From an uncultured archaeon (GTDB taxonomy: Archaea > Asgardarchaeota > Jordiarchaeia > Jordiarchaeales > Jordiarchaeaceae), in assembly GCA_964510585.1 (NCBI GenBank), contig CAZECW010000067.1, positions 1 to 9,297 on the forward strand: 9,297 bases of DNA, written 5' to 3'. Within the stretch, counting starts at the first letter, position 1. Every line of letters starts with the position of its first letter. Shown in pieces: positions 1 through 9,297 of this stretch. Both the position numbers and the translations under genes were made by a program. The notes beneath the pieces were generated by a model, which saw only the letters and a list, made by a program, of their open reading frames with translations, had not been told where the DNA came from and did no database searches.

Positions 1-135
1 TGCGTCTTGTTTAGCCTCTTAAGCCCAAGCCAAACCCTTCAGCTACCAACAACTATTTATATACCATACTTTCAAATAAACTTTCTGGCGATTCATCCCC
101 ACGACTAAAGTCGGGGGCTTTCTCGCCAAGGTTTT
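1..135 (-). mobile_element. Partial copy (left-end half, cut by window start) of non-autonomous IS200/IS605-family element
   Basis: 1-139 aligns with 6263-6404 with about 6-7 differences. On the minus strand: TTAC (139-136), then AAAACCTTGGCGAG-AAAG-CCCCCGACT-TT-AGTCGTGGGG-ATGAATCGCC (hairpin 97-117), then TATATAAATA (63-54). Similarity stops just outside TTAC. Confidence 0.9.
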
Positions 136-159
136 GTAAAAGTAGACCCACAAAAGAGA

Positions 160-3080: not shown

Positions 3081-3102
3081 CAATGAGTCTACCTTTTATA
3101 AT
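3081..3102 (-). promoter_or_regulatory. TATA-like box plus conserved 12-bp motif, oriented toward the S8 gene
   Basis: Minus strand reads ATTATAAAAG-GTAGACTCATTG; the 12-mer is identical to the copies at 3298-3309 and 6064-6075. Confidence 0.6.
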
Positions 3103-3285
3103 GTTCTGATTTTTATATTCTTTTGTGTTAACTTTACGTGGTGGTTTTTGCGGAGGGAAAAACGGGTTTAAACCCCCTGTTTTACGGGGATTTCACGCCT
3201 GGCAGGGTTGGAATCACCAAAAAGTGGTTCCTGTAGGGGAAAGGAAAGCGGGATTTAAAAGTTAACAGAACTGAAACAAATCACC

Positions 3286-3309
3286 ATATAATAAATAGTA
3301 GACTCATTG
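3286..3309 (+). promoter_or_regulatory. TATA-like box plus conserved motif upstream of the ligase pair
   Basis: ATATAATAAATAGTAGACTCATTG; 23/24 identical to 6052-6075. Confidence 0.65.
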
Positions 3310-5831: not shown

Positions 5832-6051
5832 GGCCCTTTGGTTTTGTGGTTTATGCGATGGGTCTATGACTTTCCCATTTGTATATTTATTCTTGGCTTT
5901 CACGCGGCTATTTTTTTTGGGAAACATCGTTTCAAACTGACTTTGAGGGCGGTAACGCCCCTTCCCTAAAAAGATAAGGGGGCACAAAATATCCCGCAAG
6001 TGGGTAGTAGGGGGAAGCAAGCAATTAAAAAGGGACAATGAAAAAATCGCT

Positions 6052-6075
6052 ATATGATAAATAGTAGACTCATTG
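6052..6075 (+). promoter_or_regulatory. Third copy of TATA-like box plus GTAGACTCATTG motif, no convincing downstream gene
   Basis: ATATGATAAATAGTAGACTCATTG; 23/24 identical to 3286-3309. Confidence 0.55.
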
Positions 6076-6106: not shown

Positions 6107-6313
6107 TTATGCTACTCTTTGATTGACACTCTCCGCGACTAAAGTCGGGAGATTCTTGCTTCTGGCTCATCGGGAGCCTTCGAAGCAATGGGTGTGCCAT
6201 CACCCAGTTAACACGCCCTTCCCTCAAGGGAACGGCGTCTATGTTGGTACCCTCATGGGGGCTGCGTCTTGTTTAGCCTCCTTGAGCCCAAGCCAAACCC
6301 TTCAGCTACCAAC
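6107..6313 (-). ncRNA. Putative TnpB omegaRNA (reRNA)-like structured RNA plus flank-derived 3' guide
   Basis: Consecutive stems on the minus strand: GTTGGTA/TACCAAC (6313-6307 with 6249-6243), GCTG/CAGC, GTTTGGC/GCTAAAC, hairpin 6238-6213, TGGGTG/CACCCA (6206-6189), TTGCTTC/GAAGCAA enclosing GGCTC/GAGCC (6188-6156), and the RE hairpin. It abuts the right end as TnpB omegaRNAs do. Expression is inferred, not shown. Confidence 0.6.
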
Positions 6314-6400
6314 AACTATTTATATACCCTACTTTCAAATAAACTTTTTTGGCGATTCATCCCCACGACTTGAAGTCGGGGGCTTTCTCGCCAAGGTTTT
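6123..6400 (-). mobile_element. Complete ~278-bp non-autonomous IS200/IS605-family element (PATE/MITE-like) with IS608-type ends
   Basis: Left end on the minus strand: TTAC (6404-6401), AAAG guide, hairpin 6382-6361. Right end: GAAT (6155-6152), hairpin CTCCCGACT-TT-AGTCGCGGAG (6151-6131), AGTG, TCAA (6126-6123). No transposase or TnpB coding body. A second TCAA at 6122-6119 makes the right boundary ambiguous by 4 nt. Confidence 0.9.
6317..6326 (-). promoter_or_regulatory. TATA box inside the non-autonomous element
   Basis: TATATAAATA on the minus strand (TTTATATA on plus, so direction is ambiguous); conserved in the copy at 54-63. Confidence 0.5.
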
Positions 6401-6536
6401 GTAATTTAGTTCTATTTACATTTGATAGGTTTGTTTGTTGTTTTGAGTGTCGCAGAAAAAGGTTGAAAAACCTGTGGGGATGGGAGGAATTGTAGATAGC
6501 AATAAGGGGGTGGATAAAGGAAAAGGGGTGTTTAAT

Positions 6537-7170
6537 TTACGGTTTTCTAACTTTTTGTTGCCTTTCCCTAATTCTTTAGAGGGCGTATTTTGCGGCACTT
6601 CTTATGTCCTTGCTGGACCACTCGTAGTCGTCTTCGTCGGAGGCCAATCGTAGTTTGGGATTGAGGTTATGACTTCCACTGCTCCCAGCTCCTATCTCTC
6701 CCAGCGCACCTATTGCGTAAAATTATGGGTAAAAGTGGGTGTCATGGTTGTCGAGATGGTGGATGAGGGGCTCCACCGCCCGCTCATATTTTAATCCCTC
6801 CAGTACACTTATTACCCGGATTAGAATCCTAGGATCTTTTCTTTTTGTAGTAATTCTATGAGGGCTCTACTGCCCTCAAGTCCTTCGTTTTGTTAATTGC
6901 TATCACAGTTGAGTGCCGGACGAATCTATGCTTGTCCTTAGTGCTTTTATTAGTGGTTCTACTGCTTCCCTGTCGCCTATTTTTTCCGGGGAGTTTGCTG
7001 CGGTTCTTCTGACGCTCCAGTGCTTGGCCTTTGGCAGTGCTTCTATGAGTGGTTCCTCTGCTCTTTTGTCTCCTGTCTCTCTGAGAGCCAAAGCTGCATT
7101 TTCCCGAACTTTGGGGTCTTCGTGTCTCAGGTCTTATAATTGGGGAGTTAATTGAATCTCCCACTTATTT
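6537..7170 (-). pseudogene. HEAT-repeat (PBS lyase-type) protein pseudogene
   Basis: Stitched translation: [33 protein letters not shown]...[28 protein letters not shown] / [25 protein letters not shown] / LIELLQKEKDPRILIRVISVLEGLKYERAVEPLIHHL / FYAIGALGEIG...KDIRSAAKYAL. In-frame stops at 7136-7134, ~6725 and 6578-6576; frameshifts near 6938, 6862, 6722 and further downstream. Start position uncertain. Confidence 0.85.
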
Positions 7171-7583
7171 GAGCCATTCCCATTGGATAACAGCCTTTCT
7201 GTTGGAGAATACTGTTCACCCTAACTTATATGGATAAGAGAAAAGATGGGGTTCTGCTTGTGGTGTGGTTTTTGGGTTTTGATAGGTTCCCATGAAAATC
7301 TTAGACGCTTCAAGTGTATGAATGTTTGTCTTATTTTTGTTAATTTTTTGTGTTTCTTTCGCATTTGCTGGTCCGTAGTGTAGACTTACAGTGCTTCATT
7401 GGTGCAAGTGGCGTACCCATTTTAGTTGGGTTGGATAAATTCGTTTAATCATATTATACGATGGTGATAAATTTAGTTATTTTAGTGTGTTTAAAGTTTG
7501 GCCAGAACTGTGGAAAATTTAAAAATAAAAATTGGGGGGAATGGTTTGGTATTTTTTGTGTTTACTGTTTGTGGTTTCAGTTT

Positions 7584-8943: not shown

Positions 8944-9148
8944 AAATTTCACCCAACACCATAAACAATTTTTTCCTTTTAAAATGTAGCAAACACACCT
9001 TTTTTAGCTCAATGGGAGCTGATCTTATGTTAGATGCTCCCTTTTCACTATATAGTTTTAGGTTCTTTTCGCCGGTCGATGGTGTTTTCAAAAAATCAGG
9101 GAAAAAAAATACGCCAAGCGCCTCGGTGCACAATTTTAATGCATTTAC

Positions 9149-9297
9149 AACCCTTTGCGAGAAAGCCCCCGACTTCAAGTCGTGGGGATGAATCGCCAAA
9201 AAGGCTTATAGGCTTGTGTGTTGATGAATTTATGGGTATCAACAGATGGAATACCGGCATTCTCGAAACCAGGTCTATCTCATCAACTACCACCTCG
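9149..9297 (+). mobile_element. Left end of an IS200/IS605-family element carrying tnpA (runs off the window)
   Basis: TTAC at 9145-9148, then AACCCTTTGCGAG-AAAG-CCCCCGACTTCAAGTCGTGGGG-ATGAATCGCCAAAAA, nearly identical to the left ends at 135-85 and 6400-6346; it diverges from them after ~9202 and leads into a TnpA-like N-terminus. Confidence 0.85.
9246..9297 (+). CDS. tnpA: IS200/IS605 Y1 (HUH) transposase, first 17 codons only
   Basis: ATG at 9246 gives MEYRHSRNQVYLINYHL(V), matching the characteristic TnpA N-terminus (Y.H....VY.INYH.VW). It lies ~45 nt downstream of an IS605-type left end. Too short for the ORF track. Confidence 0.75.
   Translation, partial: MEYRHSRNQVYLINYHL

Follow-up and report, generated by a model that had tools for sequence, protein, structure and literature searches.

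The window analysed here, a 9,297-nucleotide stretch of contig CAZECW010000067.1 (assembly GCA_964510585.1) from an uncultured archaeon of the Jordiarchaeaceae (Asgardarchaeota), carries a 278-bp protein-free mini-element on its minus strand, which occupies positions 6400-6123 and lies directly after a TTAC tetranucleotide. Behind its left end, a run of A and two TATA-like boxes are followed by about 190 nt of GC-rich hairpins, then by GAAU, a right-end hairpin and GUGUCAA (Table 1). A second copy of the element at the start of the window belongs to the repeat families D1, D2 and D9, and the end of the window holds the beginning of a tnpA-bearing element. An earlier reading of the same DNA, hereafter the original prediction, had placed an omegaRNA-like cassette with a TATA box at 6107-6345; the features it named are present in the sequence, though that interval covers only the RNA-like part and the presumed guide rather than the whole element. 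Its proposal that the element is a non-autonomous IS200/IS605 derivative, with an interior of the TnpB omegaRNA type that ends at the right-end TCAA, agrees with the ends shared with autonomous elements and with the homology to tnpB described below.

Table 1. Coordinates of the mini-element, its parts and related features in the window
Feature	Position	Strand	Remark
TTAC target tetranucleotide	6401..6404	-	Just 5' of the left end; presumed target-adjacent motif (TAM) of the reconstituted empty site
Left end	6344..6400	-	AAAG 6386-6383; hairpin CCCCCGAC-TTCA-AGTCGTGGGG 6382-6361; outer stem TTGGCGA/TCGCCAA
Upstream TATA-like box TTTATTTG	6336..6343	-	Candidate promoter; occupies the place of CTTATAGG upstream of tnpA in the autonomous element
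TATATAAA box	6319..6326	-	Promoter of the original prediction
5' leader or extra domain	6245..6314	-	tnpB-derived from ~6293 downstream (zinc-finger/RuvC-III part)
Putative omegaRNA-type scaffold, 122 nt	6123..6244	-	Covariance model R1
Scaffold: ACAUAG		-	
Scaffold: two-part stem B	6238-6213	-	
Scaffold: hairpin C	6206-6189	-	
Scaffold: stem D	6188-6156	-	
Scaffold, 3' part: GAAU	6155-6152	-	
Scaffold, 3' part: right-end hairpin	6152-6130	-	
Scaffold, 3' part: GUGUCAA	6129-6123	-	
Flank, putative 16-nt guide UCAAAGAGUAGCAUAA	6107..6122 (read 6122-6107)	-	Guide use presumed from the TnpB literature (PMC10097598, PMC10055086)
Second mini-element copy, left half (element positions 1-142)	1..139	-	Cut by the contig start; 95% identity
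TTAC (9145-9148), left end and first 17 codons of tnpA (ATG 9246)	9145..9297	+	Autonomous tnpA-tnpB element cut by the contig end

The boundaries of the element were fixed by comparison of its copies. Alignment of 29 full-length copies with their flanks demonstrated that the sequence shared by the family spans TTAC to GAGAGTGTCAA and that the flanks diverge at the next base. Furthermore, all 80 junctions recovered from the genome with a right-end pattern (right-end hairpin plus GTGTCAA, with at most two mismatches) stop at GTGTCAA, and their flanks differ from the first base after it. The flank of the window copy happens to open with another TCAA. Because the shared sequence of all copies stops at GAGAGTGTCAA, the first TCAA is the end of the element and a guide would start UCAAAGAGUAGCAUAA, which was the first of the two options offered by the original prediction. 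At the other end, TTAC precedes the left end at 80 of the 90 left-end junctions in the genome and in 27 of the 29 full copies, in agreement with the TTAC-type target or TAM that had been proposed; the remaining 10 junctions have TACA, TTTA or ATTA in the four bases preceding the search pattern, which looks like a one-base register shift (compare autonomous copies reading TTACAAAACCG). The first flank base after GTGTCAA at the 80 right ends was A in 45 cases, T in 19, C in 15 and G in one, suggesting that the insertion target is TTAC followed by a base other than G. The flanks on the two sides of the element are unrelated to each other.

Both ends carry subterminal imperfect hairpins without terminal inverted repeats, and these are conserved in the full copies. 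AAAG and GAAT stand at the 5' foot of the left-end and right-end hairpins, respectively, and the right-end hairpin (helices 5 and 6) exhibits compensatory changes across genomes. The minus strand of 6318-6107 (212 nt) folded at -85.7 kcal/mol, compared with -64.5 +/- 4.6 kcal/mol for shuffled sequences (z = -4.65), and none of 200 shuffles equalled it. The longest internal frame is an antisense open reading frame (ORF) of 93 aa at 6123-6404 (+), which is free of stops across the whole element. Antisense ORFs of at least 90 aa occur in only 8 of the 29 copies, the others being broken by stops or 1-nt indels, and this frame was thus rejected as a gene because it is not conserved among copies. 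The antisense strand of the element is unusually poor in stops (median 79 aa).

The genome from which the window comes (G000) comprises 3.78 Mb in 217 contigs with 41.7% G+C. BLAST searches of it with the element yielded the 29 full-length copies, at 89-98% identity, and about 100 further partial matches; these partial matches are mostly halves of ~140 bp at contig ends, and the element is therefore a main cause of the fragmented assembly. Counts made by pattern search were 90 junctions at the left end and 80 at the right. The contig depth of the element interior was, in two DNA runs from hot springs, about 50-60 times that of its flanks (562 versus 9-11 in one, 465-900 versus 11 in the other); the runs that contain the sequence are hot-spring metagenomes. 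The dispersal of about 80 copies over different TTAC sites implies past mobility. No contig joining 6122 to 6401, as expected of an empty site, was present in three DNA runs, the contigs of which drop rare variants. An orthologous empty site was also sought in five congeneric genomes, in which the flank 6405-7200 is not conserved beside the insertion point. Among the 29 full copies, variation clusters in the left-hairpin loop, the A-run, the TATA box and the scaffold loops. Within the scaffold, the minor-allele load was 0.46 per paired site versus 1.2 per unpaired site, that is, 2.6 times denser at unpaired sites, though a test of paired versus unpaired positions on the variable scaffold sites was weak (Fisher p = 0.08).

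The claim that the left end is shared with a tnpA-bearing element was borne out: over 61 nt, 6339-6399 shows 93% complementarity to 9149-9209, where the element cut by the end of the window has its left end. The first ~60-66 nt of the mini-element, TTAC included, recur before tnpA on contigs C169 and C162 with 97% identity and on C7 and at the window end with 92%. On C169, C7 and C162, tnpA is assigned to Pfam Y1_Tnp (PF01797; E 3e-34 to 3e-37) and is followed by the start of tnpB (MKRTNTFALAP...), and the sequence at 9145-9297 of the window continues into tnpA and tnpB on these three contigs and on the metagenome contig L120. The TnpA of C169 is an open frame of 129 aa, in the DNA of which HLH and SYLFS motifs were recognized by eye. 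The 3' ends of the tnpB that shares the left end are found on C8, C54, C152 and C45, where the right end stops at GAGTGTCAA. According to the rules reported for IS608 (ISHp608 of Helicobacter pylori), the element family and IS608 are alike in the TTAC target, the TCAA cleavage site at the right end, a TnpA of the Y1 HUH type, and the tetranucleotides AAAG and GAAT, one at the 5' foot of each subterminal hairpin. Unlike IS608, the mini-element is a gene-less archaeal derivative, and it is likened to IS608 by these rules, not by sequence similarity.

A cognate tnpB had been expected downstream of the tnpA at 9246. The tnpA-tnpB element does exist, though its assembly in G000 is incomplete. When the C8 fragment was used as a protein query, it identified P0002, an intact TnpB of 393 aa that is 95% identical to this fragment. 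Its gene follows tnpA on L120, a 2.5-kb (2484 nt) JGI metagenome contig with DNA 94-100% identical to the tnpA-tnpB fragments of G000; thus, an autonomous element with an open tnpB exists in the same or a very close population. The tnpA-tnpB copy on L120 ends ...GTCGCGGGGAGT at ~1985 and is followed by unrelated sequence, so that the terminal GTCAA with the TnpA cleavage site is missing; such a copy may be immobile, yet still supply TnpA and TnpB. The same GTCGCGGGGAGT junction recurs as a loose end in DNA run X1. Within G000 itself, contig C81 carries a complete and intact tnpB of 424 aa (P0001; C81:5075-6346, minus; L038:1318-2589), and its right end is 93% identical to the last 42 nt of the mini-element. 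At C81:5075-6787 (minus), a degenerate tnpA remnant is fused with this intact tnpB in one open frame of 571 aa; the tnpB frame crosses the right-end hairpin and terminates in a stop codon that overlaps the TCAA boundary.

The interior of the mini-element is homologous to the end of tnpB. Positions ~112-279 of the family consensus aligned locally with the last 151 nt of tnpB plus the right end on C8, and a homologous module that overlaps the right end lies at the 3' end of tnpB on C8, C54, C152, C45 and C81. Between C8 and the mini-element, stem B changed from GUGCC/GGCAC to ACGCC/GGCGU and stem D from UGGAGGUUC/GAGCUUCCA to UGCUUC..GGCUC/GAGCC..GAAGCA, with pairing kept in both. When the lineages were folded separately, the same order of hairpins was obtained: the two-part stem B, hairpin C, stem D and the right-end hairpin. 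For the module, a covariance model (R1; 114 positions, 32 pairs), built from 12 tnpB-linked and G004 sequences only, G004 being a congeneric genome, scored the window copy at 92.9 bits (E 7.7e-22) at 6123-6244, and, among 151 genomes from across the phylum, detected the module in 28, which belong to 13 of 52 genera.

Covariation was tested on 43 sequences from 28 genomes, in an alignment fitted to the structure of the model, against 500 shuffles and slid controls. Standard pairs filled 90.8% of the cells, compared with 70.0% in the shuffles and 44-56% in the slid controls. The analysis for which the original prediction had called, namely to collect the copies, build a covariance model and test covariation, gave 28 of 32 pairs changed on both sides, compared with 21.5 in the shuffles and 10-16 in the slid controls. 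The covariation score was 0.472, a value reached by none of the 500 shuffles (0.176), and was at most 0.126 in the slid controls. Overlap with coding frames was checked in 30 matches, comprising the best match per genome, a second one from G004 and the C81 copy of G000; a TnpB-profile open frame overlaps the module and ends inside it in 16 of these 30 best matches examined, the location for which omegaRNAs are known. The hairpin required by TnpA does not include helices 1-4, which form stems B, C and D, and the conservation of these helices therefore points to RNA. Judged by these comparisons, the interior of the mini-element is the 3' end of tnpB, that is, a predicted scaffold of the omegaRNA type that ends at the right-end TCAA. 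In a possible pseudoknot, UGGCA in the loop of hairpin C would pair with UGUCA at positions -6 to -2; the two are complementary in 98.5% of cells, with only pairing-compatible one-sided changes, and an alternative register, ACAU/GUGU, is possible. A scan of the window against Rfam 15 with E values up to 1 matched no family, HgcC (RF00062) included.

The original description of this region as almost fully base-paired holds, by comparison, for the last 122 nt (6244-6123), whereas in the 5' ~70 nt it relies on a single energy-minimised fold. The folds of the 5' domain (6314-6245) in G000 and in G038, a genome of another family, disagree, and RNAalifold identified no 5'-domain structure shared between the two; because no structure is shared with G038, the outer stem UGUUGGUA/UACCAACA has a single energy-minimised fold behind it. 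Trimming could remove the 5' ~70 nt as a leader, since transcript self-processing has been reported for TnpB. A C/T difference between the two copies in the window (6284 versus 21), which had been taken to keep pairing as G-U, is real, though the pairing role assigned to it found no structural support. In the family, this difference travels with a 1-nt indel (5 copies with TCAAGGAGG and 24 with TTAA-GAGG). The 4-bp hairpin CUUG-GGCU-YAAG proposed at this place was rejected, as it is unused in the energy-minimised folds and unsupported by comparison.

Mini-elements with the same module were also found in other genomes. The congeneric G004 has at least seven of ~210 bp (loci L054-L058, L064 and L065), in which TTAC and the left end are followed by the tnpA-upstream stretch and directly by the last ~112 nt from A(A/C)AUAG; the 5' edge of this 112-nt module coincides exactly with their deletion joint. 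G038 has mini-elements of ~330 bp with their own ends and a TATA-like box (L062 and L063), the interior of which is related to positions 99-189 of the G000 element. Three separately derived deletion forms, those of G000, G004 and G038, thus keep the full scaffold.

The original prediction viewed the dispersed copies as a distributed guide repertoire. On this reading, stand-alone guide genes would program TnpB against many targets, whether on behalf of the host or of the TnpB system as a whole. The 80 right-end flanks, each a potential guide, are indeed all different. However, a TTAC-flanked match elsewhere with at most two mismatches in 16 nt was found for only 3 of 80 guides versus 1 of 80 shuffled guides, and trans targets were rejected since there was no excess over the shuffled guides. 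The single exact case is the guide of the copy on C12, whose flank is a gene start (ATGGATCAGGG..., C12:8956-8992) that recurs after TTAC on C154:2123-2160 with 37 identical bases and a different upstream side; the C154 match is a site paralogous or allelic to it. Provided that TnpB is active, the C12 guide would be the only one with a second perfect target in the assembly. With 3 of 80 guides matched versus 1 of 80 shuffled and the exact match paralogous or allelic, nothing thus suggests a repertoire aimed at other targets. Furthermore, each guide is fixed by the landing site and fits its own donor joint alone, no connection with viruses or plasmids came to light, and cutting of a site without an element-bearing homologue would harm the host. 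A distributed repertoire is thus the least probable of the readings weighed here, and we give it very little credence. Each guide matches the joint that the excision of its own copy would create, and retention of the element at its own site is the more economical reading; such a model of homing and retention was shown for Geobacillus elements (PMC10055086).

The TATATAAA box is intact in the window copy; the claim that the cassette is self-promoted is weakened by the state of the box in other copies and by a rival box upstream. Of the 20-nt segments of the element, that with the TATATAAA box is among the two most variable, and the box is absent in two copies (C98 and C64). Variants that recur at this place (TACATAAA, TATGTAAA and TATACTAA) represent either subfamilies or repeated loss of a promoter element. 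The upstream box TTTATTTG is better conserved, most copies keep it, and it reads CTTATAAG in the two copies without the second box. Its centre lies ~26 nt upstream of 6314, the foot and first base of the outer stem, and the TATA box of archaea is usually centred ~26 nt upstream of the start. With TTTATTTG as a promoter of usual spacing, transcription would therefore start near 6314, which would dispose of the caveat in the original prediction, namely a stem only 4 nt downstream of the TATA box. By its position and conservation, the upstream box may be an equally good promoter candidate, and self-promotion and function in trans appear plausible. Homology of TATATAAA to the promoter region of tnpA was considered and rejected: two alignments are possible, neither is convincing, and only the start AAAAAG-YTTAT is clearly shared.

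Among RNA-labelled runs, one (X10) contains a 217-nt contig in which foreign flanks adjoin a match to 6123-6274, as well as another contig, which stems from a relative resembling C81. As the flanks differ, the former contig derives from another copy or a relative, and the contigs of an RNA-labelled run reveal neither strand nor ends; neither contig was taken to indicate transcription of the window copy. Apart from the element, a motif CAATGAGTCTAC followed by a TATA-like box (TTTATAAT, TATTTATTATATGG or TATTTATCATATAG) occurs in the window at 3081-3112 (+), 3278-3309 (-) and 6041-6075 (-), and at about 10 further loci of the genome. One of the CAATGAGTCTAC copies lies ~48 bp past the right end of the element, upstream of a minus-strand ORF at 6038-5766. 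The motif and box may be a shared operator plus promoter.

The TnpB homologues of this clade in the genus, six of six (C81 in G000; L073 in G004; L075 and L077 in G005; L079 and L082 in G002), have Gly at the position of the RuvC-II Glu (IVVGNL, IVCGDL or IVLGRL). All six keep a Glu 48 residues downstream (VDERGTSS or SEYKTSS) as well as the Asp of RuvC-I and RuvC-III, and an unrelated TnpB on C204 keeps the canonical LALEDL. In these residues, the clade matches the published type of 'RuvC-II rearranged' TnpB. Clades of this type, in part archaea-specific, have been predicted to retain activity by means of an alternative Glu (PMC10691335).

We propose, as the likely explanation, that the element is a mini-element of the palindrome-associated transposable element (PATE) type that exploits the TnpA and the TnpB homing of its parent in trans by means of its scaffold RNA. 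A PATE with ends of the IS608 type would have arisen from a tnpA-tnpB element by internal deletion, keeping the left end, a short promoter-like stretch, and the last ~170 nt of tnpB with the right end, including the scaffold of ~122 nt. TnpA supplied by the few autonomous copies would cut the top strand after TTAC and after TCAA and reinsert the element 3' of another TTAC. Transcription would probably run from the left part of the element through the scaffold into the flank, and the last ~16 nt of the RNA, here UCAAAGAGUAGCAUAA, would match the DNA adjoining the element. TnpB acting in trans may then use this RNA to cut the joint of TTAC and flank left by excision, and recombination with a sister copy would restore the element. 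The mini-element would thereby draw on its parent for the transposase as well as for the homing nuclease. In this scenario, promoter use, transcription, TnpB binding, cleavage and homing are the steps that we infer.

Several observations weigh against this explanation. About half of the 29 full copies carry an altered TATATAAA box (TATGTAAA, TACATAAA, TATACTAA and TATACCAA). The X10 contig, the sole RNA-labelled match, has other flanks, and DNA carry-over is possible. The tnpB that shares the left end is incomplete in the G000 assembly, where the middle ~90 codons are missing, and its copy on C7 is frameshifted by a 2-nt deletion. Moreover, the scaffold of the mini-element is only 77% identical to that of this tnpB, and stems B and D differ; recognition by the left-end-sharing TnpB is therefore not assured. 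The clade with Gly in place of the RuvC-II Glu is of a type that is predicted to be active (PMC10691335), activity being a prediction at present. Finally, the copies are young, mostly 94-98% identical to the element, and retention of the scaffold could partly be mere recency.

Some of these points would also suit a relic, that is, a recent deletion derivative mobilised by TnpA, of which only the ends are needed and in which the omegaRNA-like interior is carried along without RNA function. The youth of the copies, a TATA box that decays freely, the absence of the window copy from the RNA-labelled contigs and the weak excess of variation at unpaired scaffold sites all fit such a relic. However, TnpA needs only the subterminal hairpins, and three separate lineages (278 bp in G000, ~210 bp in G004 and ~330 bp in G038) keep at least the full scaffold of ~112-122 nt. 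Stems B-D, outside the right-end hairpin, are kept by compensatory changes between the mini-element and tnpB-linked versions, and no element with left and right ends and without scaffold was present among the BLAST and pattern hits in the genome, though no search was aimed at such elements. We thus consider a functionless relic unlikely, and prefer the explanation that the scaffold RNA serves TnpB homing in trans.

The idea of guides supplied in trans, put forward in the original prediction, had already been published (PMC10055086, PMC10691335, PMC4615843). PATEs that encode an omegaRNA, for use in trans, were noted for Geobacillus stearothermophilus (Meers et al. 2023, PMC10055086). Like these, the present element is protein-free, shares its ends with tnpA/tnpB elements of the same genome and would need TnpB and TnpA in trans. 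Unlike them, it resides in an Asgard archaeon, its presumed TnpB is RuvC-II-rearranged and it is known from sequence alone; furthermore, it is present in about 80 copies, compared with few PATE-like ones among 47 insertion sequence elements in G. stearothermophilus. In the passages of PMC10691335 that concern standalone omegaRNAs, mobilised ones are described, after Altae-Tran et al. (2021), as working in trans, where they 'provide for targeting additional sites'. As far as those passages describe them, the standalone loci resemble the mini-element in carrying no nuclease or transposase, in having effector loci in the same genome and in a flank-derived guide; their trans function was shown (PMC10691335), whereas that of the present element is deduced from its sequence. 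For ISDra2, the omegaRNA comprises a 116-nt scaffold, in which four stems and a pseudoknot were described, and, after it, a guide of 16 nt (Nakagawa et al. 2023, PMC10097598). The present scaffold is similar in its length of ~122 nt, its four stems, its end at the right end of the transposon, the position of a putative 16-nt guide and a possible pseudoknot before this guide. The two differ in that they have no sequence similarity, and the pseudoknot partner here would be either the UGGCA loop of hairpin C or the 5' ACAU.

In archaea, PATEs were first named in Haloquadratum walsbyi (PMC3119063), and Gomes-Filho et al. (PMC4615843) demonstrated that the PATE-derived RNA VNG_R0052 of Halobacterium salinarum is transcribed and that fused left and right ends are common in haloarchaea. 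A transcribed archaeal cassette therefore has a precedent. The present element is likewise an archaeal gene-less fusion of left and right ends of the IS200/IS605 type; the haloarchaeal PATEs were described before TnpB guide RNAs were understood, whereas here a complete scaffold of 122 nt with covariation support is found. For haloarchaeal PATE-derived RNAs and sotRNAs, overexpression of which changed growth, a decoy or regulatory role has been proposed (PMC4615843). By analogy, the RNA or single-stranded DNA of the many copies could titrate TnpA or TnpB through a hairpin like that of the right end and damp transposition without guided cleavage. The mini-element copies outnumber those of tnpB by ~10-20 to 1, which fits a decoy, yet a complete scaffold that ends exactly at the guide boundary would be unnecessary for this role, which we hold to be quite improbable.

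The element is thus of a kind already described in bacteria and haloarchaea, of which it is a well-preserved and very high-copy Asgard member, and it reveals no new principle. Going beyond the explanation proposed above, we tentatively raise the possibility, which we would not call probable, that it is a guide-RNA-only hyperparasite that has reached ~10-20 times the number of its parent and holds ~80 sites through a TnpB in trans with a rearranged active site; the decay of the TATA box would then record selection by host or element on the number of expressed guides. In G000, the guide-RNA module has spread far beyond the nuclease gene, and the family illustrates cleanly, by a natural case of high copy number from Asgard archaea, how modular TnpA, TnpB and omegaRNA are. 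Its ~80 pairs of guide and target, together with the TTAC motif and the compact TnpB of 393 aa, which is of the RuvC-II-rearranged type that has received little study, may make it a convenient system for the study of whether gene-less elements rely on TnpB homing in trans.

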